This document shows positions 17,317-62,357 of a stretch of DNA of 64,000 nt, one piece after another; positions within the stretch are counted from its first letter, which is position 1; each line of letters opens with the position of its first letter. A program made the translations under genes and the position numbers. The notes under the pieces were generated by a model that was given only the letters and a program-made list of their open reading frames with translations, ran no database searches and was not told the origin of the DNA. Source of the stretch: Raillietiella orientalis (lineage: Eukaryota); contig JAYWIR010000147.1 in NCBI GenBank assembly GCA_036172245.1, positions 1 to 64,000 on the forward strand. Direction: 5' to 3'.

Positions 17317-19394
17317 TTTGTCTCTTGGCTGCGACGGTGCGTTTATTACTAAACTATCCGGGAACAGAGTTCCCGAACAAAGGTCACAGAAGAGACGAAC
17401 TAAGTGAGGTCCCCAAAGCGCAGATCGGCATGACGAAAGTCCGGAAAGGGAAGGATGGGACCACAAATACACTTATAAAAAAATAAAAACAAAGATACGG
17501 GAGGGTAGTGTTTGGTAAGGCCGTTCGTTCTTTCCAGTACCGGCGATGGATGCCGGCGATCTTTCTCCTAAAGGATTCTGGAAGATCGGCCCACTCGGCA
17601 ACGGACGACATGTTCGCGCTAACTGAACCGCTGAGCTGATTAAGGATTGCCAGCTTCTGCAAATTTCGGTGGGCGTTGTCGATGGCACGGATGCAACAGA
17701 GCGTTGCAATGAATGCACATAACGACAGGCCGCCTGGCGTAATAAAGCGGCGCTTCAAGTCTTTTGCGGTGTCCAGCTGGTGCAGGATATTTAAGACCAG
17801 CCTCCGCCACAGTTCTTTAAGGACACCGTAGTCCAAGAGCAAATGGGGGAGCGTTTCCACTTCCCCGCACCGCTTAAAGATCAGGGAGACAACTCCGTAG
17901 GAAACACGTTTCGCCCGCTGGTTGGAGTGGAAACCCTAATGCAATAACAAGATGACGTGCTGTTTTCAGTTCACAGAAAACACAGAAATGTTCAGACACC
18001 AGGAAAGGACAACAAGTTCTTCGGGGAGCACACTCAAGTATTCACACCACCAAAGGATCATCTTCGAGATGTTACGAGGCGTGGCGGCATCTACCAGCTC
18101 ACTAGACTCCCAGACGCCTATGGGTAGTGTTGCTTCTGCAATGGTGCAGGCAAACTTTTACCTCATCGCTTGGCGAATGTCATCTCTTGTCCTCATGGCT
18201 CAGAGAGAGTCCGTGAGAGGCGTGACGGCCAGGCGAGTCCACTTCTCCTGGCTGTTGCACACCTCATCCACCGTGCAGTACATGAAGAGGTGAGCGCAAC
18301 GGAGTTCCAGAAGGGAAACATCCTGGTGCATTGCCCATCCATGCAACGTTTTCTGCAGCCATGCTTCAAAGTTTGTTGGGCAGCAGAAGATCCATTCCTT
18401 GGCTACCAGGAGCTGGTAGAGCGCTTTCATCCGGAAACCGAAGCTACTCGTGTCGAGCTCCGTATGCAACCCGAGCGACAGAAGTCCATCGCTGCCGTTG
18501 CAAAGCAGCAGCAGCAGGCGCGCGGGAGCGCGCCACGTAGTGGACCAAAGGTTGACACACAGGGCCAACATCCGAAGCTGCACCTGAAGCTCGATTCCCT
18601 CCTGCGCCATTATGCCTAAGCCTGCATCCCGACGCGGAGCCGCCAAGTCTTTGAGGCGGTTCGTGGACCCCGCAGGTCCCCACAGAGCGTTCTTCAACAG
18701 GCTGTGCGCCCGGAGTATAGCCCAGAAGGGAAGCGAACAAACAAAAACAGGGAGCGCAAGAGGGGGTCAACGATGGTGTTCTATATCGCGGACCTCCGAG
18801 AGGAGGAACTTGGCATGGTGGAACGGGCTCGGAGTGCTCGTAGGCTTCCGAAGGCAGTTTGAACACACTTCCACTGCGCTGATGTTCCTCAGAGGAATGC
18901 AGAGATATTAAGAGGACGGAGCGGTAGGGATCCCCAGGCGGATCCAGTCGGACTGCCTCGCCCACGCCGCACCAATAGAAACAACCCCGCCCTTCCTTCG
19001 GTATACGCTCATGCCCGCTTCACGGCGAATCACCTCGAAAAAAGTTTCGAGAATGGACGCCGGGGTGGTCGTGGGTAATAAAAGAAGCAGATAGTCGGCA
19101 TAGGCCGCCACGGAAGGCGTTCATGGACAAAAACACGGCAAGCTGGCCAGCGTCAGCAGGTACTCCATCAGAAAAAACTCAAAGAAGATGCTGAAGAGCA
19201 ACGGAATTGAGTCTTCTCTTTGCCTAATGCCTCGCCGCAATAGAACGCCGCACACGTGCCAGCCGCGAAAGGAGGTAGAAAAGACCGCGTGGCGCCAGCA
19301 AGCGTGCAAACAGGCCAAGAGGTGTACAAGAAGGCCGAGGCGTTCCAGGAGCTTCAGGAGGATACCCTCATTCACGCAGTCGTACGCCTTATGC
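17317..19394 (-). mobile_element. LINE family B, 3' part (RT KAFD to 3' end)
   Basis: ORFs 19121..19375, 18908..19111 (AYADY), 18200..18697 and 17384..17860. The 3' UTR matches those at 23076 and 49542. Confidence 0.85.
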
Positions 19395-20780
19395 GCTGGA
19401 GGGTAAACGTGTTTTCTCGGTGCTCCTCGTGCCAGGAAGTCTCCCGTAGTGCAACCGTGGTGTGGTTCGGTGGTCGATCAGGCAACGTTGCCTGACGTGA
19501 CCACCAGGGATGTCCAGGAGGCAGCGGCAACGCCGCCCCCACTGGCGATGGAGAACCAGGGGTCGGCGGCGACGTCGCCCCCAGAGGCGATCGAGGTATG
19601 GGCGTCCGCCCCACAGAATCCGTCCCCGCTTCAGCGAGCGCGTGGAGCGCCGTTGTGTCAGCGCCATCGCCTGCAGCCGCGGCGGAATGGTCGGCCTACG
19701 TAGAAGAAGTGTATAAACCTTCGATTTTCTACAAGGTAGGCAATCCTTATTCTTTAGAGAGCGCGCGCGCATTTCCGAAGGGCATGCGCGCTTTCCATGT
19801 AAAAGAGGAACTCAGCGCTATGACCATCCAAAGCGGGGGTCAGTACGTTGAGGTCATCAGCAAACAAGCCGAGCTGGCCCAACGACTGCTCAAAACCCCA
19901 GTTGTTATGGGGATGCGCAGGCTTTCCCCCTCTACGGCGGACCGCAGCATGTTGGACCACCTGTTAGACGTGACCGCGCGAATGCGCAAAGAACAGGTTC
20001 CAGCCGCTTTAGAACAGTTTGGAACGGTCCACGCGCTGTGGAAGAAAGTTAGTCCTTTCAAGGACTACACGGGGCTGCAACACGGCCTCAAAGCTGCAGG
20101 CGTGACCGTTCGGGAGGGCTGCACTCTTCCCCACAATCTGATGGTCCATGGCGAAACCGTCGACCTATGGTATGTGGGGAAGTCGACATACAGCTGCTTC
20201 TACAATACGTGGGGCCACCTTAAAAAGAGGTCTCCCAATGGGCAGTGCCAAGTATGCGGCTCAATGCGTCACAGGAGGGAGATGTGCCCAAAAGCAGCAG
20301 TGCGAGTGGTTTCGAAGAGAAACCTTAAAAAACGCGCTCGGCTGCTGCAGAAAAGGCTGACGGTGGAAGCTGCAGCGAAGGCTGTGCCACTCGCGCTTTA
20401 GACCCAGGCCGCACCCGAGACCCCAGCCAACAACGCCAAAAAAATTGAGAAAAACGGCCAGAAGCATGGGGGCAAGTAAAAAATCAAAGAAGAACAGGAG
20501 GTTTGAGAAAAATATCGCCTACTAACACAACAAGAAAGAGCAGGGTAGCGCGATAATTAACGAGTGCAGCGTCGTCGTCGGATGCGTTCCTGATGCTGCT
20601 GAACGCTGCCAGAAAGATCTCGCCGATACCGTGGACATCCCCTCTGTTGACTCTGTCAACAGCGAGGGGCGCGAGCCGGCGGCGGAGTCCGTCATCAACC
20701 CCACCATCGATGACGTAGCCTTCGCGCGAGCAGCGAAGGAGCTGGCTGCATCGTTTCAGCCAGACCCCTCCAAGGCCAGT
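19395..20780 (+). mobile_element. LINE family D, 5' part with disrupted ORF1
   Basis: ORF 19598..20401 is homologous to 40453-41430. Confidence 0.85.
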
Positions 20781-27679: not shown

Positions 27680-30600
27680 TGTCATCCGGATATGCCGAGG
27701 CATTTATTATTCTGATTTTTTACAAAAATTAGATAATAAAGTCTTTAAAAAATGTTTTCTGTGGCGGAACACTGAGTTCACCCACGCTAAGTTGTACTCG
27801 CTACACGGTCTTTAGACCGGCGAGTTTCTCTTCCCAGGCACTGGGGAAGGGGAAAAGCAAATCAAAAAACAAAAAAGGAAATAACAAGGAGGGAAACTGT
27901 TCTATTGAAAGGTGTCGGGTAGGGAAAGGATCACTGGGCGCCTGATTTGGTCCTCCGCATCCTGTTGAGGATGCAGTCAAGTTCGGATTTTATTGTGAAA
28001 GGAAGACGCCACCTTGCCGCCGTCTCTAAAGAGATCGTCGTACAGTGGATGGCGTCCCTCCATCTTTGCCCTCTTCTTCTTGCGTGCCACCTTTGCACAA
28101 TGCCGTGCACGCAGCAGAGGACTGCTAGAAACGCTACGGAGCGCAGGCCGTAACGCAGAAAGGGGAAACGGTAAATATCCTTAGGGTCGCCTACTGGAAG
28201 ATGGAGGATTGGGTCGATGCGACTCCAGAGTCTATCCAGGGCGACACACTCGAGGGTGAGATGCGGAAAGGGTTCTCTTTCACCGCACTCGACACAGCGG
28301 GCATTCACTTTCCCAAGTGTCCAGTGAGACAGGCGTGCTCTGCTTAACAGCCCCAGTGCAGAAATAGCAACGCCGTCTCCTGCCACTTCAACGGAAGTGT
28401 GCCGCAATTCCAAAACGGTGGGGGCCACTTCACCTCTTCCGGAGGTATTGCGAACAGCTCTCCCCAACGCGCAAGTCCGTAAGGCGGGACGCTCGGGGTG
28501 GCAGCGTCCGTGAGCTCCCGAGTCGTCCACACCTTTAAAAGTTTTTTCCTGCCTCGGATGAGGCAGGACACATCCCACGAAGCCCAATCGTTGCTGCTTC
28601 TAGTGTTTTTCAGGGAGGACAGAACGGGGGCAAGAAGGCTGGAAAAAGCCCACAGAAACTTCCGGGGCGTGTTGATAATCTCCTGCAGCGGCTGTCGAGC
28701 GTATGGTCCTCGTCGTAGACAGTTGTATTCCGCCTCGCTCGTGACGTTGATCTTAGCCCACGCGGAGGCTGACTGCTGAAGCCAGGCAGTGCAGTTTGCG
28801 GGGAGGCAGGATATCCAGGTATTCACCCTCATCAGCGCCACCATCTGGCGCAAATGGTTGCCACAGTTGGAGAAGCTGCGCTGGTAGGTCACGAGGATCG
28901 AGGACAATCCTTCGCAGCCGGTCGCTCTTCTGGCGAGAAGCCGTGCCGTTTTGCACCAAGGCGTCATCCATGAGCTAGCCGCAAGGGCCAACTTCCGAAG
29001 TGAAATTTGCAGGTCGTTGCGCTCCAATGTAAGGAGGCCCAAGCCACCATCCCTGCGTGGAGCGCACAAGTCCTTCAATCGGACTCGCGACCTCGCTGTG
29101 CCCCAAAGGGCAGTCCTCAAGAGGGCTTTGGTCCGTCTCTGTATGATGTGAGAAGCGGGGCAAACAAAAAGTGAGGGGCGAAGGAAAGAGGCCGCGAATG
29201 CGTTCCACACCGCGGCCCGCTCCTGCAAGTAGAACTTGCCGTTCCGGAACGGGCCGATCGCCAACTCCACCTTTTGGAGACGGTCGGACCAGGCTTCTAC
29301 AACGCAGAAGTCCCCCAACGGAACGCCAAGGTACTTGAAGCACCTGCCCGTGGGAATCTCCAAGCGGTTCCAGTCCGGCCGTCCGGCCCACACCGTATTG
29401 TTTGAAAGTAGTGGTGATGTTGGAACGATGGAAGATTTCTCTCTGTTCACCTCGAGGCCCGTCAAGCGGCGCAGCAACTAAAAGAAATCTTCGAGCGCGG
29501 ACTCCGGGGTGGAGCCGGGGAGCAGGAGCAGAAGGTCGTCGGCGTAGGCCGACACGGCTGGCGTGGCGGGACACTAGCTTGGCAGGGTTGCCAGAGTCTC
29601 CCTGTATGCCCTCAGCACCAGCTCGAAGTAGATGTTGAAGAGCAAGGGGCTCAGACTGTCACCCTGCCTTATGCCACGTCGAACCGGCACCCCGTACACG
29701 TGCGGGCAGCTAAAAAAGATGTTCCTTTGAGCAAAGCGGTAGCAGGAGTGCAGGTAAGCCCGGTTGACGGCCGGAAATCCCAAGCGTTCCAGGAGCTCTG
29801 AAGGAGTTCCTGGTCGACGCAATCGAACGCTTTACGGAGATCTACTTCGACCGCAAGGGCACCGGGCGCGTCTCTTCAATGAAGGTCATCCCCTCCCTGG
29901 TCAGAAAAGAATCCAGGATTCTCTTGACCTCCCTGGTCTTCGCTTTGTTGCAACTGCCACCATGTACTGGCGAGGAACCGGTTGGCCTCTATCCTTGGTC
30001 CGGGAAGAGCGTATCTGTGCTCCGGACTCACCACGGATTCCGGCAACCGTTTTAGTCGTTCATCGCGAAGCTTGGGAAGCAACTTCGCATCCGCATTCAC
30101 TACTGTGATAAGACGTCATTTGACTACGTTGCGATTGTCTCCTCCTTTCGGCAGAACACGTACTCTAGCTGACCGGAACGATTTCAGGACGTCCCCTTGT
30201 TCTCGGATCAGCATTCAAAGCCGATGCACCAGGAAAGCAAGCTCCGCCACGAAGCCCTGGTAGAACTCCGCGGTCAGACCGTCTTCTCCTGGTGCTTTTT
30301 TCTTTCTGATCTTTCCGATGGCGGAAAGAATTTCCGCCATTGTAAAAGGCTCCTCCAGATGATGTTTTTGCTCCTCCTGTAACGCGAGGGCGCCTTGCGG
30401 TAGCAAGCGCTGCGCCACGGCGCGCTCTGTTGTTCTACACGCGTACAAGGAGGAGTAATAGTCCCGCAGGATGCGGTTTATTCTCGCCGGAGCTGAGCAT
30501 TCCTGGCCTTGGGCGTCCAGCAAGCTGGCCGACTCGGATTGCCAGGTCTGTCGCTCAGCCCCAGCTTTATTCCTCTCCAGGCTGCGAACGTCGGGATTCC

Positions 30601-34730: not shown

Positions 34731-35339
34731 TTTTCACCCGGTCAAGCCGGGGCATTTATTTAAAAACTAACAGTATTCGCGGTACAAGGCCCCACTACGG
34801 CCAATAGTCCTATGGAGCTGTCTGGTGGTCAGTGCACAGACCGACATAACACTCCACGTCCACGGATGGGGTTAGGGAAAAAACCAAAATAAAAAAAAAT
34901 ACAAAGTAGAAACACTTGTCATTGAGGGGGCCGGGAAAGGTTCACTGTCCGTTTTGTGAAGCTTCCATCCTTTGCAGGATGCCGACAAGGTCCTTCTGCA
35001 GATTTCCCAGGTGGGAACAACGGGATGCTAATCGCAGAAAGCGAGCTGCATACTCCACGGCATTCCTTCTGTTAGCATCCGCTGCTTCATCGGATCCACT
35101 CCAAGCGGCCACAATACCGCGTACGCAGCAGAGAGCTGCTATAACAGCGGCTGGCTGCAGGGCGTCCGGCACGAAGAGGAGCCAAAAAACGTCTCTGGGA
35201 AGACTACCTTCCAAGATCCCTAAGGTGGAACCGAAACGTTCCCACAGGGGCCGGAGGACAGCACACTCAAGTAGAAGGTGCGGGAGGGTTTCCCGCTCCC
35301 CGCACAGGGCACAGTTTTCGTTCACACTTCCTTGTGTCC
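34731..35339 (-). mobile_element. LINE 3' fragment (zf-RVT to 3' end)
   Basis: CALCGERETLPHLLLEC; 3' motif at 34731-34760. Confidence 0.85.
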
Positions 35340-38409: not shown

Positions 38410-40129
38410 TTCTAGGGAGCGGACGTGGTTTGGCATCGCTCCACGGAATGGTTAGTGGGAAGCTTTTCGTTGGTTGTCATGTGTGTGGGAGTACCGGTGT
38501 CCCATGGCAGACATGCCTGAGGACACCGCGATGGAAGTTGGAGGAGGAAAAGCGACATGCTCTCCTCCACCAATGAAAGAGAGGGCATCCGCACCCACGG
38601 AATCCGGGGCACTTGCCCCATCGGAATCGGGGCAACCGGCCCTTCGCGAGCCTTTTCGCCATTGACGAAGAGTTGGAGTGACGTCGTTGCTGCACCATCC
38701 CCGGATGCAGTAGCGGAGCAGACTGCCTACAAGGACAGCGGCTACAAGCCGTCTCTGATCTATAAGCTAGGCAGTGTGTTTGATGAAAAAATTGCACGCT
38801 CCTTCGAAATGGAGCTGCAAAGGTTGAACGTGAGGGAGGAAGACCTTTTAGGCCTATCCGTCCTTAGTGGGGGCAAGCGAGTTGAGCTGACATGCAAAGA
38901 GGCAAGTCTGGCGCAGCGACTGCCGAACAACCCTATTACGGTGGACGGCCGCAGGATCTTCCGTGTGACGGAGAACCTCTCTGTCGTGGTACACCTCACA
39001 GGCGTATCACTCCGAATGGACAAAACGAGCGTTCATGAGGAGTTGTCGAAGCATAGTAGTGTGCACGCGTATTGGGCAAAACCCAATGTCTTCCGAACGT
39101 ACGGAAGGCTATTTAGTAGGATGGCCGCAGCCTGCGTCACCCTACCAGAGAATGGTGGGCTTCCCCACAAACTGAATATCGGCGAAGAAAAAGTCGATGT
39201 TTGGTACGTGGGTAAGCCCAAGTATTGTGGCCATTCCGATGCCACAGGGCATCTAAGAAAGCGGTGCTCTAACATCCAATGCCACTTATGTGGAAATAAG
39301 GGCCACATCCTTAAGGTGTGCCCAAGAAGTGAAATCCCGCCCCCATCCGCTGCAAAAAAGGCAAAGGGGAAACGCACTGGAGATACGCATAAACAGAAAC
39401 AGGCTGTAAACACCCAGATGTTAGTCCCTAAGCCCTCACAGCAAACCTCGTTTAAGAACACTCCCGACGACGATGGTGACGGCGAAGGCTGGCAGACGGT
39501 ACAGCCACGAAGAAAAACCGGCAGTCCCGAACGAAACGCGTTGAAAACAAAAACGCAGCGCGAACAACCGTACCGCGAAAAGCTCCGCGCGTGTGCGGTA
39601 ATATTAGAACGTGTGGAGGCACCCGTTGCCGCCGCCGGGACTGCAATCCCTTCCCTCGCGTCCGCCGAAGCCGCGACGATCGATGGTGAACCCACTGGCG
39701 AAACAGAGGGGGAACCGCGCGCCGCGCTCGACGCGATCGAGAAGGCCGCATTCCAGCAGGCGGTGGAGGAACTCACGGCTGAACTGCAAGGCCGTGAAAA
39801 GAACTCGCGAAAAGCTTTGCGAAGGCCGGCCGCGAGGAGGGCTCCGGAGGCAGGTGAGGCCGATCCGGACGTCAAAACTGCGTCCTCTTCAGCGGAGGCG
39901 CCACCAAAAAAGACGGGACATAAGTCTCAGAAACCCAGGAGGCGCATCCGGATCAGAAAAGGAGGCGCATGAATCGGCCACCGAGGGGGAAGCCGCCAGC
40001 GTGGGAGGCGAGGGTGGGAATATCTCATTCCCCGACACCGTGCAGCTAGCGACCCCCATGGAGGAGGATGAGCAGGTGAGTGAACCCCAATTTCCTCTGC
40101 GAGGCCCCGACGACGAAGCGTCCTCCATG
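38410..40129 (+). mobile_element. LINE family A, 5' part; ORF1 from ATG 38504 with frameshifts (main ORF 38557..39972)
   Basis: 471-aa ORF with zinc knuckles; homologous to 35436-36916. Confidence 0.9.
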
Positions 40130-40359
40130 CCCTTAGCACCAACACGAAGTAGATGCTGAAGAGCAAGAAGCTCAGGCTGTCAACCTGCCAGATGCCGCGG
40201 CGCACTGGCACGCCGCACACGTGCCGGCCGCCGGAACCAATATTGATATACGCGTCGCGCCAGCAGGAGCGCAGGTAGGACCGGAGCACGCACGGGAAAT
40301 CCAAGCGTTCCAGAAGCTCCAGAAGGAGATCCTGATCGACGCTGTCGAACGCCTTGTGC
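40130..40359 (-). mobile_element. RT fragment, left half of the host split by the family D insertion
   Basis: HKAFDSVDQDLLLELLERL..GIWQVDSLS. Confidence 0.8.
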
Positions 40360-40369
40360 GCTCTAGGGC

Positions 40370-40380
40370 GGACGTGTTTT
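40370..40380 (+). promoter_or_regulatory. Conserved 5' motif GGACGTGTTTT, putative internal promoter element (representative copy)
   Basis: Variants lie within about 5-35 nt of at least 12 element 5' ends. Function is inferred. Confidence 0.5.
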
Positions 40381-40452
40381 CTCGGTGCTCCACGTGCCAG
40401 GAAGTCTCCCCCAGTGCAAGCGTCGTGTGGTACGGTGGTCGATCAGGCAGCG

Positions 40453-42114
40453 ATGCCTGACGCGACCACCAAGGATGGCCAGAGGGCAGCGGCGACGCCG
40501 CCCCCAGAGGCGATGGAGAGCCAGGAAGCGGCGGCAACGTCGCCCCTGGAGGCGATGGAGGTGGGGGCATCCGCCCCCACAGAATCGTTCCCCGCTGCAG
40601 CGCGAGCGTGGAGCGCCGTTGTGTCGGCGCCATCGCCTGTAGCCGCGGCGGAATTGTCGGCATATGTAGAGGAGGGGTACAACCCCTCATTGATCTACAA
40701 GGTAGGCAATTTACATACTTTAGAGAGCGCGCGCGCCTTCTCGAAGGGCATTCGCGCTCTCGATGTGAAAGAGGAGGAGCTCAGCGCTATGACCATCCGC
40801 AGCGGGGGTCAGTACGTTGAGGTCATCTGCAAACATGCAGAGCTGGCCCAAAGACTGCTTAAAACCCCCGTTGTGATGGGGACGCGCAAACTCCTCCCCA
40901 CTACGGCGGAACGCAGCATGGTGGTCCACCTGTTAGGCGTAACCGCGCGAATGCGCAAAGAACAGGTTCGCGCCGCTTTGGAACAGTTCGCAACGGTCCA
41001 CGCGCAGTGGACGAAAGTAAGTCCTTCCGAAGACTACACGGGGCTGCAACACGGCCTCACTGCTGCGCGCGTGACCGTTCGGGAGGGCTGCACTCTTCCC
41101 CACAAACTGGTGGTCGAAGGCGAAACCGTCGACCTCTGGTATGTTGGGAAGCCGAAATACTGTGGCTTCTGCAATACGTCGGGCCACCTAAAAAAGAGGT
41201 GTCCCAATGTGCAGTGCCAAGTATGCGGCACAATAGGCCACACGCGGGAGGTGTGCCCACAAGCAGCAGTGCGGGTGGTTTCCAAGAGAAACCTTGAAAA
41301 ACGCGCCCGCCTTCTGCAGAAAAGGCTGGCGGGGAAAGCTGCCGCGAAGGCTGTGCCACCCGCGCCCAAGACCCAAGCCGCACCCGAGACCCCGGCAACT
41401 AACGCCGAAAAAGTTGAGGGAGCCGGTTAGGAGACTGGGTGGCAAGTGGAGACGGCCAAAAAATCAAAGAAGGAGAGGAGGATGGAAAAGAAAATCGCCT
41501 ACCAACAGAAGCAGAAAGATTAGGGTGGCGCGATTATTAAACAGTGCACCGTCGTTGACGAACGCGTTCTCGATGTTGCCGAACGCTGCCGGAAAGAACT
41601 CGCCGCTTCCGACGACCTCCCCTCTCTTGACACAGTCAACAGCGAAAGGAGCGTGCCCGCGGCGGCGTCCGTCCTCGACACCACCACCGATGACGTAGCC
41701 TTCGCGCGAGCCGCGGAGGAGCTGGCAGCCTCGTTGCAGCCAGAACCCTCCAAGGCTGGCAAGATGGCCGTAAGGCGTCCGGCCTCCACTCAGGAGTCCC
41801 ACACTTCCGACCCCGAGGTGGAGGCCGGAAGCGGAGCCTCCGTTTCCACGGCACCGCACAAGAAGGCTGGACGTAAGTCCACAAAGCCAAGGAAGCTCGT
41901 CTCCCCCGTCGAAGGGGAAGAGATGGCTTCCCCAAGCGAGGGTGCCATGAGCGTGGGAACCTCTCGGGACCCGTCGCCCGAGAGACTCCCACGCGCGGAC
42001 ACGGAGGGGATGGATGGGGTGGAGGCCGAACAGGTGCCTCAGGTGCCTGAGAAGGCCGAAACCCCCATGGACATCCCGCCCGCCTCGCAAGAGGAGGGCT
42101 CCCCCACACCTTAA
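40453..42114 (+). pseudogene. LINE ORF1 (two CCHC knuckles), interrupted by an in-frame stop at 41428-41430
   Basis: Track ORFs 40354..41430 and 41653..42114 are in the same frame; CGFCNTSGHLKKRC and CQVCGTIGHTREVC. Confidence 0.85.
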
Positions 42115-42128
42115 TCTTCCCAGCAGTA

Positions 42129-45100
42129 ATGCCGGGAATCTCCTCCCGCCGTCGTCGGCGCATCGCCGTTTGGAACGTGAACGGCATGACAGACGCCGGC
42201 AGCAGACGAGACATGGCCGCCCTTCTCGAATCCTACGACCTTGCGCTGCAGCAGGAGATCCACGTGATCTCTGCAGAACAAGCGCAAGAGATCGAACGGA
42301 TCTCCGGAGGGCGGCTATGGTACATGTATGGGAGAGTGAAAAGTTGCGGTGTCGCCTACCTGCTTCAGCCAGCCGTCGAGGCCGCGGCTCGAGGCGTGCG
42401 GTTCGACGTTCACGGTCGTGTCGGCCAGCTGACTCTAAGGTGGTCCGACTCGATCGATCTGATCGTCACGAACGTGTACGCACCGAGCGGCAAGGACCTG
42501 ATGAACAGAAGGGCGAGGAAAGATTTTTTCCTTGCCGTTCGGCGAGACTGGCTGACCGAAGCAGGCGTGCGAAATGCCCATCTGGTTGCAGGCGATTTCA
42601 ACGTTCGCCTGAAACTAGATGCGCAGAATCCCGAGCGTGACCTGGTCAACGAGGTGTGCATGGCGCTGCACACCTGTAATTTGTTGGCCAGTGCATCGGG
42701 GATGGAAGACAGCATTGAACACGTGATTCTTGACGAGAACCTGTGCCCTCGCTTGGGCAGGCGCGGCAAGTTACCGTGCGAGCAGTACGACCATCGCCCG
42801 CTAGTTCTCGAGATCCATCCGCGCGACAGGGGCCCCCCCTCGTCAGCGTGGCGTCTCCCAGGGGACCGGCAGAAGCTACTGGACGCGGCGGAACATCCCC
42901 GCACGTTCATGCGGAGCTTCAGGCTGCAAACACTCCAGGATTAGGACCGCTTCAAGCGGTCGGTCCAGTAGTTCTGCGACCAGTTCCCTCTGCACCGCCT
43001 ACCTACGGGTTTTGGGACCGGGGTCCGTAACGAACAAGCCTACCTGCAGGCCCGTCGTTACGCCAGGACCCCCGACATCCGCAGGCTGGTGGAATACAAA
43101 GCGGGAGCCGAGAGGCAAGCCTGGCAGTCCGGATCGGCCAGCTTACGGGACGATCAGAACCAGGAGCACTCGGCACATGCCCAAATCCGCTGCCTGCTGC
43201 GGAGTTACGACTCCTCCCTGTATGCCAGGGCACCTCCGGAGAGGAACGTCTTACGACTCCTGCTTCCGGAAGGCGCTCCAGCGATCGGGGAGGAGCAGAG
43301 AAAGACCCTCGACGAGCCTTTCACGATGGACCAGATCCTCTCGGCCATCGGAAAGCTCAAGACGCGAAAGGCTCCAGGAGAGGACGTTCTGCCCTCGGAG
43401 TTTTATCAAACTTTCGCGGCTAGGCTTACCCCCCTGGTACAGCAACTCACCTTGCTGATACGCGAAACAGGTGACGTTCCCGCCTCGTTTCGTTCGGCAA
43501 AGGTGCGGCTCCTCCCTAAGGGAGGAGATCTGAGAAGCATGAACAACTGGCGTCCCATCACAATCGTGAATACGGACGCCAAGTTGATAGCCAAGATGTA
43601 AGCAGAGCGTCTGGGACGGGTTGCCAACATCTTCATTAGCCCGGAACAGATATATGCTGTTCCCGGGCAAACCATGGAGGCAAAACTGTTCCACGCTTCC
43701 ACCTGGCTAGAGCTCCAACATGAAAGGAGCTTCGTGCGCAGCCGGAATTCCGGTGCTTGCGCCATAAGGGAGTTGGATGGTCGGGTGGGGGAGGGAGCCC
43801 TTGCGGTCGCAATCGACTTGCGGAAAGAATTCGATTGCGTCGACCAGAATCTCCTTCTGGAGCTTCTGGAGCGCTTGGGCTTCCCGGCCTCATTAGTGGC
43901 CTATCTGCGCTCCTGCTGGCGCGACGCGCTCATCAATCTTACTTTCAGCGGGCAGACCGTGCACGTCGTGCCGGTGCGGCGTGGGATCCGGCAGGGAGAC
44001 AGCCTGAGCCCCTTGCTCTTCAGTACCTACTTTGAGTTGGTGCTGAGAGCGTACAGGGGAACTCTGGCGCACCTGCCGCACGACTGTGCCGGTACGCCCG
44101 CCGTTTCAGCATACGCAGACTACCTTCTGCTGCTGCTTCCTATGTCCACTCCGGCTGTGGCGGTCGAGGAGTTCTTCGACCTGCTGCATTGGGGACCGGA
44201 CTTACGGTGAACAGGGCGAAGTCGTCCGTGATGCCAGTTTTTGCGGCGTGGGCAGGGAAGCAGGACTGGGTCCGTTTGGGGATCCCCACGGTGAGGTACT
44301 TCAAGTAACTTGGTGTGCCGTTGGGGGACTACTCCCCTGCGGAAGCGTGGTCCGGCTGCCTCCAAAAAGTAGAGACGGCTATCGGCCTGTTCCGAGGCGG
44401 CAGGTTTTTCCTGCCTGATCGGGCCGCGGTTTGGAACACGCTTGTGGCTCCTTTCCTCCGCCTCCTGCTTTTTGTTTGCCTTCCTACAGAGAGAATGAAA
44501 AAGCGGAAGAAAGGACCTCCTCCGTATCGCCCTTTGAGGCAACGGGAGGGCCCGAGTCCGCCTAAAGGACTTGTGCGTTCCACGTCGGGATGGTGGTCTG
44601 GGCTTCCTGACGCTGGAGCGGCTGAAGCTTCAGTTCCAGTTCCGCTTGTCGGCACTCGTTCCAGAGTTGTGGTGAACCTGTTGGTGCTTACCTGCACGTC
44701 TCCTTCTCCAGCAAGCCACCGGCAAGACGGGACCGACGTCGTTTCTTGCACTCCGTCGCCGCGTCATCCGATGGGGACTCCACCTACGGAGGGTGGCTGC
44801 GCTGTATCCCAAAAACCCAGGATTGCCCACCTGTCGCCCTTTGAACGGTAGTGCCTGGCTGCAGGAAACCGTTCGAACGTGGGGACAGTTCGGCATGCAA
44901 CGCTCCCAACAGGAACGAAAGTTCCTGTTTGGGGGTTACAGAAGTTGCACGCTTCGCGAGATCCTGGAGGATCCAAAGAAGAGAGCGTGGGCAGAAGAAC
45001 CCCCTCGCTGCTGCGCTGTCCTCCCTAGTGGAACATCAGGACAGCGATGTTGCGGCGAAGTGGGAGGTTAGAATAAAAATCTCCGGGAAGGAGAAGAAGC

Positions 45101-45705
45101 AGAGAGAGTGGAAGACGGGCCAGCTAACTGATGCTGCGACCCCGAGTTCGCCTCCCAATGGACTTCGGCGCTGGGGCGCGCTGCTAGATGTTCCCATTGA
45201 ACATCTGAAGTTGCCCCCGGTGCTCATGAACACTTCCGCCCTTTCCTTAAAATGGCAGAAGTCGGCTCTCCTGTTGCAGAACTGGGGACTCCCCTGCAAC
45301 TCCCGCCGACGCCACTGGACCTGGGGAGCGGTGGACCCCAATTGCGTCAGGTGTGGGGAACGTAAGTCGCTCTTCCACCTGCTAGTGGATTGTTGCCCTT
45401 CGGCCCTTTGGTTTCGCTTTGCCGCGGCCATCGGAATCCCCTGCGGCAACCCCAGGGACGCACTGAAAGCCCTCTTCGTTGCCTACGCCCTTCGGCCTGC
45501 GGCCTCGTTGGCAGCTTTGTGCTGCCTACGCAGGATCGTCACCGCTTGGAGCGAGGCTACGGGAGGACAACGCGACCAGGGTGCCTTTTAGCCAGCCTCA
45601 TAGTTCCTGAGGAGGGCGTCCCGATGGCCCCACCTGGATCCAGTAATACAGAAGGAGCTTGCCGGCATCCTGCAAAGGATGCAACGGCACCACCAGCAAC
45701 TGTGA
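42129..45705 (+). pseudogene. LINE ORF2 (APE endonuclease, RT, zf-RVT) with several stops and frameshifts
   Basis: WNVNG, QQEIH, NVYAP, GDFN, WRPITIVNTDAK, GIRQGDSLSPLLF, AYADY and CVRCGERKSLFHLL motifs. Confidence 0.9.
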
Positions 45706-45892
45706 TCCCTTCCCTTACCCTCCCAACTTTTCTTTTCTTTTTTGTTTTGTTTTTTGTTTTTCCCCTTTCCCCCGGCTGCCGTGGTGGACCGTACCGTTCT
45801 GCGAACCGGTGACCTGGCAGGTTCTGTGTTTCTTCGTGCGTGGCTGGAGCAATGGTCCAGCCACCACACGTCTTTGTAAAAGTTTATTTTAC

Positions 45893-45923
45893 AATAAACG
45901 CCCCGGCGAAATCCGGGTGAAAA
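45893..45923 (+). terminator. Conserved LINE 3' terminus: AATAAA, GC-rich hairpin, short A tail (representative copy)
   Basis: AATAAACGCCCCGGCGAAATCCGGGTGAAAA. Variants occur at 14 element 3' ends. Confidence 0.7.
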
Positions 45924-46045
45924 TCGAATGCTTTGTGCAAATTGACCGCGACGGCAAAGGCTCCCTACGAGTCCGTCCTTTCTTCTGCATGATGTTCTTG
46001 GTCAGAGGGGAGCGCGAGGCTCCCTTGACCATCCTGAGCAACGCT
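45924..46045 (-). mobile_element. RT fragment, right half of the host split by the family D insertion
   Basis: Reads GALAVAVNLHKAFD on the minus strand. Confidence 0.75.
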
Positions 46046-47348
46046 TTGTCGCTACTGCTACGATGACCCGGTCGTCGCTGCTCACGCTGGGCTCGCAATT
46101 TTGTTGCGGCGTCGACGTTCGCGCGGCGGCGGGTTGAACAGCTGGCGTGACGTCACATCGCATCCATCCGTCAGCGGAGCGAGTATCGATCGCCGGCACG
46201 CGTTTGATGGCCACGCTGCACGCTATGATTGTTGGGCGTGGCGCGACCTTCCCCTTGCCCTTCACCACTTTCGCCTGTGCGGGCGCGGTAGTTTTAATAA
46301 TTTTTACTTTGCTGGTGACCAGCTGCCAGCCTTCCTCGTCGGCAGTCTTTTCCGAGAGCTCCTGTACCTAGTCCTTTTCCAACTGCGCGACTTTTGTCGT
46401 AGCCGACGGCTGATCCCCTTTTGTGGGGCTGATTGCTGTTTTTGCCTTACCTTCCTTCTTTTGCGTAATTTCCGGCGTTGAAGCGACGTTCATCGGGCAG
46501 ATCACTTTAGTGTGGCCCTTTGCGCCGCACGTTGGGCAAACTGCTTTCGGGCACCGCTTTTTCAAATGCCCGAACGTCTTACAACCTCCACAAATATTAG
46601 GTTTCCCCACAAACCAAATGTCGACGAACTTGTCGCCAATTTGGAGCTTGTGGGGAAGCTGTAAGCTTTCTCGAAGCGTCACGAGCGCGCCTACTCGCCC
46701 ACTAAATGCACCATTCACTCCGAAGGTGTTATGCTTTCTCCACATCGCGAAAACGCTAGCGAATTTTTCGAGTTCAGCGTGGATGGCGTTCTCATCCATC
46801 CTCACTGTTGTCCCTGTTAGGTGGACCACAATGGAGTGGTCCACCGTGTGTGGGAGTAAATTCCTGCCATCAAATTGTACGGGCGTGCTGAGCATCTTGT
46901 GGGTAAGAGCTGCATCCTTGCAGATGAGCTCCGCCAACTGCCCTCCGCTCCGTATAAAGAGGCAAAGAATTTCATGGTCGGCAATGCCCATCTTTTTGAT
47001 GGCATTGCCGAACTTTCGCGCCCTTAACGGGGAATATAAATTGCCTACCTTGTACAGGAGGGCCGGATTGTAGCCCTCCTGCATGTAGGATTGTATTTCG
47101 GCGGCGACATCGGGCGTTTCCGCCGCTGCCACCGCGCTCCAGGCCCTCGTCATAGTGGCGGGTTCAGAAGAAGTGGTGGAGCGTGATCCCACCTCCTTTG
47201 GCTTGGAAGGCGCGGTCTTCCCGCCTCCCTCACCTGAAACTGCGGCGTTCACAGGCATTTCTGCCTGTCAACTGCCGCGAAACACACACGAAACACCAGA
47301 GAGAAAAACTGCTTATCCACGGAGCGCACAACAATTGCCTCCGCCGTT
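46046..47348 (-). mobile_element. LINE family F, 5' part; ORF1 from ATG 47258 with a premature stop at 46368
   Basis: 296-aa ORF with CGGCKTFGHLKKRC and CPTCGAKGHTKVIC. Confidence 0.88.
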
Positions 47349-49542
47349 CGCCTCCTCCTAAGGCGCTACTAGGCAACCGCATCTGCGGCTGCCTAGCCTA
47401 AGCGTCGATGCATTCGGCCTGGGGAAGCGCTGGGTGCCTTGACGATCGTGGTCGATCTCCGCAAGGCGTTCGATTGCATAAATCACGATCTCCTGCTGGA
47501 GCTCCTCAAACGTCTCGGTCTACCCGTGCACCTCGTCGCGTATTTGCGCGCTTGCTGGCGCCACGAGCTCATTTCCATTTCTTTCAGCGGCTGCCACGTG
47601 TACGGCGTGCAGGAGCGGCGGGGCATCAGGCAGGGCGACAGCCTCAGTCCACTGCTCTTTAGCACCTACTTTGAGTTGGTGCTGAGGGCGTACAGGCTGA
47701 CGCTGGCCAACCTGCCGAGCTCTTGTCCAGGAACGCCGTCCGTGGCGGCCTATGCTAACGACTTTCTTCTACTCTTACCCATGACCACACCGGTGTCCAG
47801 TCTTGAGGATTTCTTAAAGCTGATACGCCGGGGAGCGGGCATGAACGTAAACCGGAGCAAGAGCGTGATCGTACCTATTGGTGCGGCGTGGCAGGGGCAG
47901 TTCGACTGGATCCGCCTGGAGTTTCCAACCGCTTCCTCCATGCAATATCTACGCGTTCCGCTAGGGAACATCAGACCAGTGGAAGTGTGGTCGGAGTGCC
48001 TTCGGAAGGCTTTGAATGCCCTGTGCCCGTTCCACCATGGCAGGTTCGTCCTGCCGGAGCGGGCCACGATATGGAACAGCTTCGTTGCCTCCCTTTTGCG
48101 CCCTTTTCTTTTTGTTTGCCCGCCTCCCTACTCGGCCAAGCTTCAGGAGCACAGCCTGTTCAGGAACGCTCTGTGGGGACCTGCGAGGTCCAGGATACGC
48201 CTCAAAGACTTAACGGCTTCGCGTCGGGATGCTATCTTAGGCAAGCTGACGCAGGAGAGAATCGAGCTGCAGGTGCAGCTTCGAATGTTGGCCCTGTGCG
48301 CCAACCTTTGGTCCACTCCGTGGTGCGTTCCTGCGCGCCTGCTTCTGCGGCGCTGCACAGGCAGCGATGGACTACTGTCGCTGCGGCCGCCCACGGAGCG
48401 CCCCACGAGAAGCTTCGGTTTCCCCCTGAAACCGCTGTACCGGCTCCTGGAAGCCCAGGAATGGATGTCCTGCCGCCCAACGAACTTTCAAGCCTGGCAG
48501 CAGGAACCGTTGCATGGCTGGGCAAAGCATCAGGATGTTTTCCTCCTGGAACTCCGTTGCGCTCACCTCTCCCCGTACTGCACGGTGGATGAGGTGTGCA
48601 ACAGCCAGGAGAAGTGGACCCGCCTGGCCGTCACCCCCCTCGAAGACGCACTGTCAGCCCTCAGGGCAAGAGATGACAGCCTGGAACCGGCGAGATGGGA
48701 ATTCGCCTGCACCTTTGCAGGAACAACACGACCTAATGGTGGCTGAAAGACTTGCGAGCTGGCAGACGCCGCCACGCCTCGCCTCATCTCGAAGGGACTT
48801 CTTCGGTGGAGGGAACACTTGAGTGTGCCCCATGAAGAACTTGTGGTCCCTCTCTCCTGTTTGAACACTTCGGTGTTCCCCCTCTCGTGGAAGCAGGACG
48901 TCATCATGCTGGTGCATTGGGATTTTCTCTCCAACCAGCTGACGAACTGTGTTTCCGGGGGAGTTGTCTCCCCAAACTGTAAGCGGTGTGGGGAAGTGGT
49001 AACGCTCCCGCACCTCCACCTGGACTGCGGTGCTCTTCTAGGACTCTGGCGGAGGCTGGTTTCAGCTTTCCTGAACCAGGGGGACACCGCGAGGGACTTG
49101 AAGCGTCGCTTCTTCTCGCCAGGCGGCCTGTCTTGGGTGCTGTCGTTGCAACCGTGTGTTGCACCCGCAACATCGTAAAGGCCCATAGTGAGTTGGAGAA
49201 GCTGGCCATCGTTCGTCAGCCCACGGCATTAGCCACTACAAACATGTTGTCGGCTGGCGAGTGGGCTTATCTGCTACAGGGCGTAAGGAGAGAGATGACC
49301 GTCATCCATCGCCGGTTTTGAAAGAAGGAACGGACTCAATAAAGACCCCTGTCTCCTGCCCTCCATATTTTAATTTTTTTATAGTAGTGTATTTGTGGTC
49401 CCTTCCCTCCCGTTCCGGACTTTCGGCATACCGACCTGCGTGTCGGGGATCCCACCTCCTTCGTCTCTTGTTTTCCCCTTTGTCCAGGAACACTGTTCCC
49501 GGATAGTTTACAATAAACGCCCCGGCGCACTTGGGTGATAAA
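47349..49542 (+). mobile_element. LINE family B, 3' part (RT to 3' end)
   Basis: ORF 47439..48746 (DLRKAFD, GIRQGDSLSPLLF); 3' motif at 49512-49542. Confidence 0.9.
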
Positions 49543-55252: not shown

Positions 55253-58200
55253 TTACTTCTCCACCGCACAAGTATGGCGGTGATGAAGAGAGCGATGGTC
55301 ATCGTCACCATGGGATTGTAACGGAACATTACCATCCCCCTGAAACATCCCGGCGAAGATCTCCATTACGGACCTGGTGGTGAGTCCCATGATCCTTTTC
55401 AGGATCAGCCAGTCATGAAGCAATGTGGGACACGTCAAGACGTGAAGTCTCGTGTCGATGTCTCCACATGCTGTGCAGTCTCGATCTTCCCTTATTGCGG
55501 TGTAGTGCTGCAATCGGGACCCACTCTGGATTCCTGCATGATAAAATATCAGGATGTCATCCTGGGTGCCCGGTGGAAGGTCACTCCTACAGAGCGTCGT
55601 GCCAATCGCTAACAGGTTGATCCGGTCCCTCCCGTAGCGAATGGCGGCTTCCTGCAGGGCACTAATATCACTGTGTTCTTCTTGAATTATTCTTCGGAGG
55701 TTTGTTTTGTTAACCATGGACCACGCAAAGTCGTTGTGGTTGAACCACACTTCGCGAGTCATGTGGGTAAACCTTCCTAACACCATCTCTATATACCTAA
55801 GTATACGAGTGTGATGTAGGTACATTCCTCGTTCCCACTCCTGGATTCGTTCAAGGGTAGCTCTGGACCGCTGCTGGATCCAGCTTCTCGTGTCCGGCGG
55901 GACAGGAAGCATCCAAGGGATCACCAGGATGGACTCGTCCTGCCAGAGTTCGCTACTTCTCGGCACGATCTCGATTTTTTGCTTTCGCACCTGCCGTTGC
56001 TTCCTCGTCCAGGTTGGGTCGATTTTTTTCCATTCGCCTGCTCGGCCTAGCAGCGCAGTCATCAGGCCTTTCTAGTTGTTTAACAAGAACGCGTAGGCTC
56101 TGTGTGCAGCATACGGCCAGTCAACCCAGTGAGTGGCAATGTCCAGGATGTGTCGCGTATCCATGATTTCTATGGAGTGTGCAAGCGAATTCATCGCGGA
56201 ACTGTCTTCTTTCCTGGGACGACACAGGGGTTTTAGGCGGACTCTTGGGCGATAGTGGCCCCACAGTGTTTTCCTCTGCAGCTTGTCGAACTCCCTCGTG
56301 GTGTCCTTGTTCATCCTCGCGAAGGCCGCCCCGAAGAGCACTTTTGGAAGGAGTACTCCGTTTTATATGTTGGCCTTGCGCTTCATTCCAAGGTCAGTTC
56401 GGGTGTACTTGGCAGCTTCCTTGGCCGTTTTCCCTAGGATCTCGGTCCACAATAGCTTCGACACGGAGACGTCTCCAATGTAGACACCCAGGTACTTAGC
56501 CTTGTCCACCGTTCGGAATCCTCTCCCCGCTAGAGCGGAAAGATCGAGGATTCCAACGGGCAAGAGTTGGCTTTTCTGAGCGTTGATCTTTTGACCCAGG
56601 CATTGATCCATCAGGTCTACCACATCCAGAAACGCTTGTTGATTTCTCTCTACCTTGATAAAGGAGAGTAGATCATCAGCGTATGCCAGATGGGTAGACG
56701 CTAGCCATCGATTTTTATGCCTTGGAGTCGTCCGCTTTTCTCGATAAAGGACGACAACGCCTCCATGTAGATGAAGAACAGCATCGGACTAAGCGAATCG
56801 GAATGTCGGACTCCCCGTTCCATCCGGATTGCTGCCGTCTCCTGGCCGTTGATTTTGATTCGGCAGCACTGGTTCTGGAGTACCACCCTCACGAAGTTGC
56901 TGAAGTGTTCCGGAAGGCCTAGCTTCTCCAAAACCTTCAGCAGCATCCCATGGCCGATGGAGTCGAAAGCCTTCTCCATGTCAGTGAACACAAGCGCCAC
57001 GTTCTCGCCGACGTATCGGCTGAGTCCGACGGTGGCCTTGGCACACTTGACATTGTCCGACATGTGACGTCCAGGGACTGCACACGTTTGGACATGAGAG
57101 ATGAGCTTCGTCATGACCTTGCCTAAGCGGTTGGACAAGATCTTCGCCAACCACTTGGCATCCGAGTTCAGGATCGAGATTGGCATCCATTGAGCGACCT
57201 GCGTGAGGTCGTTTCCCTTTAACAACAATCTCATCCGACTCTCGTAGAACGACTGTGGAAGTCTTGTTTCTTCGCGGATGCAGAGGGTCAAGTGGTGGAG
57301 CAAACACAGGTAGGCATGCAGGTACCGCTGATAGTGAGTGATGGGTACGCTGAAAGGGCCCGCTGCCGCGTCCTTGCGTAGTTGACCAAACGCAGTCTTC
57401 ACCTCGTCTTCGGAGAATTCCGCCTCCAGTCTGTTCAGCTGGAGATCGTCGGTCCTCTTCTCGGGGTAGCTCAGAAAGGCCTGTTGGTTAGAGCGACAGA
57501 GATGTTGTCGCGTAAAGTGTTCCGTGTAATGCCTGTGAAAGGCATCCACGATGTCCTCAGACGACTGTCGCTTTTGACCGTCGTACTGGATGCAGAAGAT
57601 ATCTGTTGCCAGATTTCTATTCTCCAGCACGCCGACTTCCCCTTTGATGTTCTTGAAGACGTACCGACCCTCGTACTGAACAAAGTACTTTGAGAGTGAG
57701 CGATCTTGGAGGTTCAGCTCCCGGTACGCCTCCTGCCTCAAGCGCCTATCTCCGAACTGCATGTTTGCAAACAGGTGTATCCTGTGTTTCAGGCTGTCCC
57801 AGTCGGCGACTCTTCGGATTGTTGTTTCCTTCAGAATTGTCTCCAGGACAGCCAGATGTCCGGGATGGGTGTCGAACTAGGCGGCCTTGCTGATGAGCGC
57901 CGCCCTGGTTCCTTGCCTCCGTCGAAGGATTCTCCGTTCTTAGGGAAGACCGCACCAGGGGGTGATCAGACACCGTGGTAATAATGTCTCGAAAACCCTG
58001 GATGCGATTCCCAAGTTCGGTGCTGTGCAGGACGTGGTCGATCGGCTTGTGACTTGCAGTTTGCCACACCAGTCCGAACTCTTCGGATAACCGCCGATAC
58101 GCCGTCCTTCCTCTGGCGTCTTCGTAGTGAGAGATCTCATCCAATATGTTGAGATAGCCAGCAACAATCACGACTTCCTTGAAAGCAACCTTTTCACGGA

Positions 58201-61221: not shown

Positions 61222-62357
61222 CCCAACCAACTCAGAGTAGGTGCTGAAGCCCAGGGGACTGAAGCTATCTCCCTGCCTATGCGGCGCCGTACCGGCACAC
61301 CATACACCTTGTGACCGCTGAAAGAGACGGTAATCATCGAATTTCGCGAGCAAGAGCGCAGGTAGGAAATCAGGGAGGGTGGCAAGCCTATGCGACCCAG
61401 GAGCTCCAAGAAGAGTTCCTGGTTCTACACAGTCGAACGCCTTGTAGAGATCGACTGCGAGCGCTAAGGTCTCCTTTCCCGCCCGGGGGTCCCTTCCCAG
61501 CCCGGCTGGCGGCACCAATGTGGGTTTGCCGACTATCCCTATCCCTTTCTTCTTTCTTCTTTGCAGGTGCACCCATGTGCTTGCGAGGAAGAGGTTGGCA
61601 TCCATTCTTCGCCCGGCAACAGCATAAGTCTGCTCCGTGCTAATTACGGATTCTGCCACCTGCCCCAGACGCGAAGCGCATAGCCCTGCTATCTGCTTGG
61701 CGTCCGTATTCACCATCGTGATCGGACGCCAGTGCTTTAAATCCTTGAGATTTCCCCCTTTCGGAAAGAGCCTCACTCTGGCTGACCGAAACGTGGCGGG
61801 AACAACGCCTTCGTCACGGATCACCCTGATCAACTTAAGCAGCAGGGGTGCCAGCTCTTCCGCCTAGCTCTGAAAAAACTCCGCGGGCAAGCCGTCTTCC
61901 CCTGGAGCTTTCCACCTCTTGATCCTTTTGATACCGTCGAGAGTTTCGCCGGTGGTAAAAGGCTCAACGAGGCTTTCGATCTCCTCCTCCCCTATTGCAG
62001 GGGCGCCATCCGGAATCAAGCGTCCAGAGTCGTTTCGATCCAAGAGCTCCCTGGCGTAAAGGGAGAAATAGAAACTCCGCATGAGATGCCGTACCGACGC
62101 CGGGAACCAACATTCCCGGCCCTGGTCGCCGAGCAAGCTGGCCGACCCGGATTGCCAGGCTTGGCGTTCGGCCCCGGCTCGGTACTCGGCCAGGCGACGG
62201 ACATTAGGGGTTCTCTCGTAATTACAAGCCTGTGAATAGGCCCGATGGTTGCAAGGACCCTCGCCGAATTTGGGGGGCAGGCGGTCCAGGGGGAAGTGCT
62301 TGCAGAACTCCCGGACTGATTCCTTAAAAAGGTCCCAGTCCTGGAGATTCCGGAGCG
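61222..62357 (-). mobile_element. ORF2 fragment (linker to RT core)
   Basis: LQDWD, KAPGEDG, WRPITMVNTDAK and DLYKAFD motifs. Confidence 0.85.

Follow-up and report, generated by a model that had tools for sequence, protein, structure and literature searches.

The window analyzed here comprises 64,000 nucleotides (positions 1 to 64,000 of the forward strand) of contig JAYWIR010000147.1 from the Raillietiella orientalis assembly GCA_036172245.1, and all counts of junctions and sites given below are for this 64-kb stretch. Judged from its translations, the window is a dense nest of eukaryotic non-LTR (long terminal repeat) retrotransposons that combine an apurinic-like endonuclease (APE) with a reverse transcriptase (RT), i.e. 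APE-type long interspersed elements (LINEs). One of the families in this nest, termed D, adjoins the codons with which related LINEs encode RT motif A (xKAFD), and does so only in antisense orientation. We consider it likely that family D is a target-sequence-specific LINE of the APE type, for which the motif A DNA of its relatives serves as the target.

Anatomy of the nest and of the family D elements

With the conceptual proteins of D as tblastn queries, nearly the entire window (G+C content ~57%) resolves into fragments of ORF1 (open reading frame 1), APE, RT and the ORF2 C-terminus on both strands. It is thus almost wholly made up of nested LINE fragments and represents a LINE-only cluster formed by the insertion of elements into their own kind. 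A tRNA scan and an Rfam scan of the 64-kb window gave no matches.

The full-length copy of family D, termed D3, occupies positions 40360..45923 of the plus strand (5564 bp) and is dead. Its 5' untranslated region (UTR; 40360-40452) is followed by ORF1, which runs from the ATG at 40453 to ~42111 with 2 in-frame stops, and by ORF2, which runs from the ATG at 42129 to ~45591, is damaged by 4 in-frame stops and 2 frameshifts, and encodes the APE endonuclease, the RT and a C-terminal CX2C...HX4C element. Pfam recovers the Exo_endo_phos (E=1.2e-5) and RVT_1 (E=8.6e-10) domains in D3, and the APE segment matches ExoIII and L1-EN chains, so that an apurinic-like endonuclease lies upstream of the RT. 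Motif A of D3 itself reads RKEFD (43824-43838). Two CX2CX4HX4C knuckles, CGFCNTSGHLKKRC and CQVCGTIGHTREVC, can be read directly in ORF1 at 41161-41256 and have no Pfam match at E<=0.01. CCHC zinc knuckles in ORF1 are a feature of the L1-type I and Tx1 ORF1 proteins, and the ORF1 of D3 shares it. On its own strand D3 starts (40360) with GCTCTAGGGCGGACGTGTTTTCTCGGTGCTCC, and the copies starting at 19395 and 3201 open with the same stretch bearing substitutions. The 3' terminus (45893..45923, plus strand) comprises an AATAAA signal (45893-45898), a 5-bp hairpin (CCCGG at 45902-45906 and CCGGG at 45913-45917) and a terminal GTGAAAA. This tail is common to 8/8 aligned element 3' ends from several families; compensatory changes were seen in 0/5 hairpin pairs across these 8 aligned ends. 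Families that differ by 40-60% in ORF1 also share a 5'-terminal motif (..GCGGACGTGTTTT.., e.g. at 40370-40391) along with the 3' tail of AATAAA, short hairpin and GGTGAAAA; the shared motif and tail may be the promoter and the ends recognized by the RT.

Two further copies retain the 5' end. D2 (19395..20776, plus strand) corresponds to D nt 1-1397, is 85% identical to D3 and gives way at CCAAGGC to the 5' end of an element of family X (X2), while D1 (1737..3201, minus strand) corresponds to D nt 1-1434, is 77% identical to D3 and is broken by the 5' end of X1. The host of D1 (H1; 3202..4921, plus strand) extends from the PKASD codons through the C-terminal part of the RT and the ORF2 C-terminus. 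That of D2 (H2; 17063..19394, minus strand) extends from the HKAYD codons to the 3' region, and is 76% identical over 2.3 kb to an uninterrupted copy, U47 (47463-49796). The host of D3 (H3) is present on both sides of the insertion on the minus strand, namely as a downstream RT half (HKAFDSVDQDLLLELLERLDFP...; 40122..40359), which is ended at 40122 by another junction, and as an upstream RT half (45924..46065), which past the D3 3' end reads ...GAFAVAVNLHKAFD and whose closest relatives are D (79%) and another uninterrupted copy, U29 (76%).

A fixed antisense junction in RT motif A

The host-sense sequences adjoining the 5' ends of D1, D2 and D3 are ACCTAAAGCTTCCGA (3202, plus strand), GCATAAGGCGTACGA (19394, minus strand) and GCACAAGGCGTTCGA (40359, minus strand), respectively. 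From the junction onward the host sense strand runs GCACAAGGCGTTCGAC in H3, GCATAAGGCGTACGAC in H2 and ACCTAAAGCTTCCGAT in H1, and the corresponding translations, HKAFDSVDQDLLLELLERL..., HKAYDCVNEGILLKLLERL... and PKASDCVNQKLLL*LVEHL..., are RT motif A and the region downstream of it, antisense to D. The register is exact for the D2 and D3 junctions and holds to within ~5 nt for that of D1, because the first 4 bases of D1, CGGT, mismatch the GCTC/GCTG of the other two copies.

At its opposite end D3 terminates with ...CCGGGTGAAAA / ...AATAAACGCCCCGGCGAAATCCGGGTGAAAA (45923), and the host resumes with GCACAAAGCATTCGA (45924-45938, minus strand). The stretch on the left (40345..40359, minus strand), which in host sense is GCACAAGGCGTTCGA and consists of the last base of a Leu codon, the His-Lys-Ala-Phe codons and the GA of the Asp codon, and that on the right (45924..45938, minus strand), which is GCACAAAGCATTCGA, are identical in 13/15 bases. 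Both halves of H3 contain GCACAARGCRTTCGA, the repeat cannot be extended on either side, and the two mismatches are synonymous transitions (AAG/AAA and GCG/GCA). When one of the two copies is removed H3 reads ...GAFAVAVNLHKAFDSVDQDLLLELLERLDFP, which is a continuous RT motif A; hence the repeat is a true 15-bp target-site duplication (TSD), the length of which is read from D3, the sole copy with both ends. The target, the position within it and the orientation are therefore the same at 4/4 junctions of family D, i.e. three 5' ends and one 3' end in 3 hosts. For three independent insertions into a homologous host of ~5.5 kb in either orientation, the probability of a shared base and orientation is ~(1/11,000)^2, and chance does not explain the shared insertion point of D.

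This anatomy agrees with the first-pass annotation of the sequence, which had placed the 5' ends at 3201 (minus), 19395 (plus) and 40360 (plus) against host xKAFD codons in one register, with the adjoining sequences as found here (exact for two, the third to ~5 nt), had proposed antisense insertion of the family at a single fixed position (3/3 5' ends lie antisense at the site), and had described a full-length copy within a 15-bp TSD matching at 13/15 bases with both mismatches synonymous. It had further ascribed the imperfect TSD either to decay or to recombination between two D copies seated in different hosts. The first of these alternatives is enough, judging from the sequences, since a difference at 2/15 bases (~13%) resembles the 15% divergence of D2 and D3; that both mismatches are synonymous is mildly odd (n=2). 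Recombination across D3 between two different host families finds no support and was rejected, as both halves of H3 are nearest to D and U29. A recombination between two hosts of one family is possible.

Three insertions into three hosts

Because the first-pass annotation had itself named duplication of a single locus as the finding that would overturn its reading, the divergence of the inserts was compared with that of their hosts. A single ancient D insertion, carried within a composite that was subsequently copied by segmental duplication, would reduce the three junctions to one event, and BLAST alignments do cross the junctions (1737-3426 with 41789-40135, and 19176-20776 with 40141-41756). 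A duplicated composite would, however, have diverged equally in both of its parts. The D copies show pairwise identities of 74%, 77% and 85% over ~1400 aligned bases, whereas the hosts show 60%, 60% and 63% over their first 238 bases, with z = 4.5, 5.6 and 7.8 for the differences. As the hosts are far more diverged than the inserts, these are not copies of one locus.

The distribution of the differences over codon positions speaks against post-duplication decay as well. In ORF1, 35-38% of third codon positions and 14-19% of first and second positions differ between D1 and the copies D2 and D3; D2 differs from D3 at 19% and 11-13%, respectively; and H1 differs from H2 at 57% and 30-33%, respectively. 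The excess of third-position changes in both inserts and hosts indicates that much of the divergence accumulated under purifying selection, in active lineages before insertion. The family relationships of the hosts also contradict a common locus, with H2 grouping with U47 (76% over 2.3 kb) and H3 with D (77%, the closest relative of D in the window) and U29 (76%). Taken together, the identity gap, the codon-position pattern and these affinities lead us to regard duplicates of one locus as extremely improbable. Instead, sequence comparison indicates that D1 on the one hand and D2 and D3 on the other arose from different master copies, that the hosts are different LINE lineages, and that each of the three junctions records a retrotransposition event of its own, in a host of its own. 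The preference for the target was kept while subfamilies of D diverged by more than 20%.

Placement of family D

An exhaustive HMMER search, for which the query was an open APE-RT frame of 466 aa from a D copy (52143-53543, minus strand), recovered 5142 proteins at E<=0.001 and only 2 at E<=1e-30. One of the two, P0002, is an intact 619-aa RT from a metagenome contig, 68% identical over the matched stretch; the other, a turtle protein annotated as "unnamed protein product", is matched four times in repetition. Among the matches that follow are fish proteins and a cluster that bears the name "transposon TX1 uncharacterized 149 kDa protein". P0002 matches human L1 ORF2p with E=1e-39 (140 bits, phmmer) and R2 with 1e-15 (64 bits), and a fish ORF2 of the Tx1-named cluster with 174 bits (BLASTP). 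On the strength of the better match to L1 ORF2p than to R2, and of the match to the fish protein with the Tx1 name, we assign D to the L1/Tx1 superclade, the level to which these sequence scores are informative. In comparison with the fish Tx1-like RT, the D lineage carries an insertion of ~20 residues just upstream of motif A (43740-43810; P0002 residues 195-222), seen as a gap in the BLASTP alignment.

The repeats of the window have a CpG observed/expected ratio of 0.97, and transitions are about as frequent as transversions among the D copies, which together imply a mode of decay unlike that of repeats in vertebrates. Methylation-driven decay of CpG has left no sign, even though the named proteins nearest to D are Tx1-like ORF2s of vertebrates. 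Comparison with a protein atlas returned generic RVT_1 clusters only, and two word-index protein searches gave no matches. A scan of metagenomes with the D 5'-end pattern yielded 23 loci, which were dismissed as chance matches since BLAST showed a match confined to the pattern in 3 and none in 20. Among the assembled contigs listed (314 short contigs, mostly <400 nt, of one sequencing run, presumably of DNA, with 0.15 of sampled words), no loose end at 40360/45923 was seen, these contigs being uninformative on the junctions; the listing of runs with matching words included no RNA run.

Occupied and free sites

A motif scan of the window recovers 8 RT KAFD sites, 3 of which are occupied by D (3206, plus strand; 19390, minus strand; and 40355/45934, minus strand). 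The others include RKAFD in U29 (29819..29833, minus strand) and in U47 (47463..47477, plus strand), YKAFD in a third copy, U61 (61429..61443, minus strand), EKAFD in a distant LINE family (56959..56973, minus strand), and the RKEFD of D3 itself. Of these, the first-pass annotation had listed the sites near 29825, 47460 and 61435 and that of D as uninterrupted, which they are, and had omitted the free EKAFD site at 56973.

The same annotation had taken these residues as a hint that D discriminates (H/P)KA from RKA or avoids itself. In this form D would distinguish HKAFD (or PKAFD) from RKAFD and thereby spare itself and some of its relatives. The residues are H, H and P at occupied sites as against R, R, R, Y and E at free ones, and both TSD copies of H3 read CAC, indicating that the His is older than the insertion of D3. 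Nor can CpG decay explain a change of R to H: it was rejected as the origin of the His in occupied sites on account of the CpG ratio of 0.97 and the parity of transitions and transversions. The association is nevertheless not significant on 8 sites (R in 0/3 occupied versus 3/5 free sites; Fisher p=0.20), the residue in question is encoded at the far edge of the TSD, and the Pro of H1 falls within the uncertain bases of the D1 junction. As for self-avoidance, RKEFD is seen in a single dead copy of D, and the closest intact relative, P0002 (68%), reads RKAFD. We therefore do not retain either idea, and think it rather unlikely that D discriminates between the two kinds of site.

Targets of the other families

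In a phylogenetic tree of the 17 ORF1-bearing copies of the window, D1-D3 form one clade (support 0.999) with copy n as its sister; their ORF1 proteins are 71-77% identical to one another and <=59% identical to the others. The 5' end of copy n (62363, plus strand) adjoins, in antisense, the APE-RT linker of its host U61. A second clade, comprising the elements c, I and J (support 0.996), has 3/3 of its 5' ends (~15331, ~35347 and 38410, all plus strand; TTCTAGnnAGCGGAnGTGGTTTGGCAT) at one other fixed antisense site and in one register, ~25 nt upstream of the CX2C zinc-finger codons at the ORF2 C-terminus of K-type hosts. The regions containing these landing sites are 14715-15900, 34730-35900 and 37800-38950; their host parts are 62-72% identical and their insert parts 77-84%. 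A further instance of this landing site lies at 9063-9078 (minus strand), where a 5' end with the I/J/c 5'-terminal motif follows a 13-nt remnant of the target and the 3' end of another element. The 5' end of copy k (51513, minus strand) adjoins, again in antisense, the "GFGTGV|RNE" codons of the RT N-terminus in the copy at 51505-52086, and element E, of family X, lies antisense ~100 nt upstream of a free KAFD site.

These observations bear on the alternative that the KAFD stretch acts as a hot spot for insertion in general, through a property of the host DNA (its structure, its fragility or a sequence liked by any LINE endonuclease of this nest) rather than of D. The families of the window do share their 5' and 3' terminal motifs, as would suit a common preference. 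Yet no end other than those of D occurs at the KAFD site in the window; the I/J/c clade uses another site in 3/3 cases, k, n, E and l are found elsewhere, and 5/8 KAFD sites are free. The site belongs to the D lineage, and we give a general hot spot a low probability.

In other families the placement is more varied. Family X keeps to no single site: besides E as described above, X1 lies inside the ORF1 of D1, and X3 and the 5'-truncated element g (32856) lie head-to-tail behind the 3' ends of other elements. Head-to-tail junctions, in which 0-25 nt separate a 3' end (..GGTGAAAA) from the 5' end of the element behind it, occur at 7672, 9078, 14719, 23080 and 27682 on the minus strand and at 32856 on the plus strand; these could have arisen through insertions that used one target repeatedly or through template jumping from end to end. 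Targets are thus specific to the lineage in two clades at least, but the nest was not built solely by strict site specificity.

Family D has itself been invaded. The C-terminal part of its ORF1 has received three insertions in sense orientation (20770-20785, plus strand; 26490-26500 and 1730-1740, both minus strand). A fourth copy, D4 (26497 to 24556), starts at CCAAGGC directly after the 3' end of another element, D2 is broken by X2 after the same CCAAGGC, and the break of D1 by X1 lies 37 nt beyond that position; CCAAGGC in D ORF1 is a possible further fixed site, one with a TSD of ~7 bp. An open frame of 824 codons (2-2473, minus strand) spans the C-terminal half of D1 ORF1, the D1-X1 junction and the 5' UTR and ORF1 of X1, and runs off the window. 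With a chance probability of ~1e-13 at the local base composition, it indicates that the D1 and X1 copies are young or that the frame has been kept. A 145-nt 5' fragment at 61081-61226 (plus strand) was considered as a further D end and rejected, as its first 20 nt are D-like but its left flank differs and its remainder is not D-like. It is an orphan LINE 5' piece (5' UTR and first codons), flanked on one side by the distant family m (its 5' side) and on the other by the broken RT of U61, and since it lacks a body it cannot be the product of 5' truncation.

A model for target-specific integration

Removal of D3 gives a pre-insertion plus strand of ...CTG|TCGAACGCCTTGTGC|AAATTG..., from which a possible sequence of events can be reconstructed. 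D would integrate by target-primed reverse transcription into the xKAFD-coding DNA of the host. The first nick would fall on the host sense strand after TTCGA, within the Asp codon (GA|Y; TTCGA|C in H3); the 3' end of D3 is joined to the host sense strand, whose 3' end is ...GCRTTCGA, and this joint points to TTCGA|C as the first nick. The freed 3' end would then prime cDNA synthesis on the short A run of the D RNA. A second nick on the other strand, 15 bp away (GTGC|AAAT in H3), would result in a precise full-length 5' junction and the 15-bp duplication; the 5' junctions of D2 and D3 are indeed full-length and have no extra bases. We infer the nick positions, TTCGA|Y and GTGC|A, from this anatomy of the junctions.

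By analogy with the R1 and Tx1 clades, in which the encoded endonuclease is described as setting the target (PMC4494074; PMC4640811), it is probably the endonuclease of D that reads the target sequence. Nucleic-acid homology might instead guide the process, either through read-through D transcripts that carry and anneal to the flanking KAFD sequence or through recombination or gene conversion among LINE copies, which would spread the junction. As D always sits in the same flank, a read-through RNA would carry the target sequence; according to PMC4494074, specific integration of R2 and R1-type elements is reportedly enhanced when target sequence is transcribed along with the element; and two synonymous TSD mismatches are what flanks from two once-active hosts would be expected to show. 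On the other hand, the AATAAA 25 nt before the 3' end and the short A run suggest a processed rather than a read-through RNA, the last bases of D are not complementary to the target, the junction is base-precise in spite of a host identity of only ~60%, and both halves of H3 are closest to the same lineages. Accordingly, homology as the guiding principle appears improbable to us, while pairing between RNA and target is a possible contribution to targeting by the endonuclease.

Several observations weigh against target-specific insertion of D into motif A as we propose it. The window holds only three insertion events, one of them with both ends, and the D1 junction carries an uncertainty of ~5 nt. 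The specificity of the D endonuclease is what we infer from junctions and analogy. Of the 8 KAFD sites 5 are free (29833 minus, 43824 plus in D itself, 47463 plus, 56973 minus and 61443 minus). Finally, family X occurs at 3 different kinds of place, and this, along with the six head-to-tail junctions, shows that strict site specificity is not general in the nest. If D does select this target, its choice may have been favored because active host LINEs cannot alter these codons and because the site would be harmless and multicopy.

Relationship to known systems

Target-specific LINEs aim at rRNA, small nuclear RNA and tRNA genes, microsatellites, telomeres, DNA transposons and LTR elements. The closest parallels to D are found in the Tx1 clade, where Tx1L targets the piggyBac-type Tx1D, the crocodilian Tx1-Mar targets Mariner-N4_AMi, Tx1-8_Crp and Tx1-4_AMi target LTR retrotransposons and Tx1-9_AMi targets Harbinger, according to PMC4494074; further target-specific members described are Keno, Kibi and Koshi (PMC4494074; PMC4640811). 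Like these, D is an APE-type LINE found in a fixed orientation at one sequence within another multicopy mobile element. The TSD of ~15-16 bp, the CCHC knuckles of ORF1 and the Tx1-labelled nearest named protein relatives are further points of likeness. For SINEU-3, mobilized by Tx1-Mar, a 16-bp TSD and a pattern of "tandem copies sandwiching a TSD" are described (PMC4494074), and the arrangement of the I/J/c clade at 9063-9078 resembles the latter. The target of D differs from those of Tx1 elements: in place of a DNA transposon, LTR element, RNA gene or microsatellite, it is the coding sequence for a catalytic RT motif in sibling LINEs, including the closest relatives of D; moreover, several sister lineages here use different fixed sites in one another.

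LINEs that nest in their own kind are known from other lineages. Zepp, as described, nests in existing copies and gives rise to tandem arrays of 3' ends (PMC8226300; PMC3446292). The window resembles the clusters of Zepp and ZeppL, green-algal L1 elements, in that L1-type LINEs have inserted into existing copies to form LINE-only nested clusters, and it also contains head-to-tail arrays of 3' parts, though only of families other than D. The junctions of D are, by contrast, all antisense and do not form a same-orientation tandem array of 3' ends; a base-precise antisense site in RT codons is not part of Zepp as described in PMC8226300 and PMC3446292. D also differs from the green-algal L1 elements in its AATAAA tail and its nearest named relatives, which are animal Tx1-like. 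Cnl1 of Cryptococcus is described as inserting preferentially within itself, in nested arrays that are tandem (sense) and near telomere repeats (PMC9942834). It shares with D the formation of self-nesting LINE arrays, but D nests in antisense, at a fixed coding position and with a 15-bp TSD. The poplar centromeric LINE Celine is described in PMC11288735 as having unique TSDs and no fixed site.

In a literature search over the main texts of one paper collection, no LINE was described whose fixed antisense site lies in the RT codons of other LINEs. We thus view family D as a variant on known themes, namely self-nesting LINEs (Zepp and Cnl1) and transposon-targeting Tx1 families, the new element being a fixed site in the RT codons of sibling LINEs.

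Implications

R1 and R2, the LINEs specific for ribosomal DNA, homing endonuclease genes and inteins all aim at sequences that are highly conserved, multicopy or unchangeable. D would do likewise, but the targets of those elements are cellular genes, whereas that of D is the catalytic codons of a selfish element. The site of D encodes the catalytic-aspartate motif, mutation of which would be fatal to an active host LINE, and the choice of such a site resembles the logic of homing endonucleases, directed here by one selfish element against another. A comparison of the strategies of R2 and homing endonuclease genes is given in PMC4640811. More tentatively, and with somewhat less than even confidence, we envisage a guild of sibling LINE lineages with private, base-precise landing sites in one another, in which D would hold the KAFD codons of motif A, I/J/c the stretch upstream of the ORF2 zinc-finger codons, and others the APE-RT linker. 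If so, such LINE-on-LINE hyperparasitism alone would build LINE-only islands of the kind seen in this window.

If the specificity of family D for motif A holds true, it would clearly exemplify how one retrotransposon can parasitize, and kill, others. It would also provide a natural endonuclease with a recognition site of ~15 bp, and would explain the growth of nested islands that consist of LINEs only.

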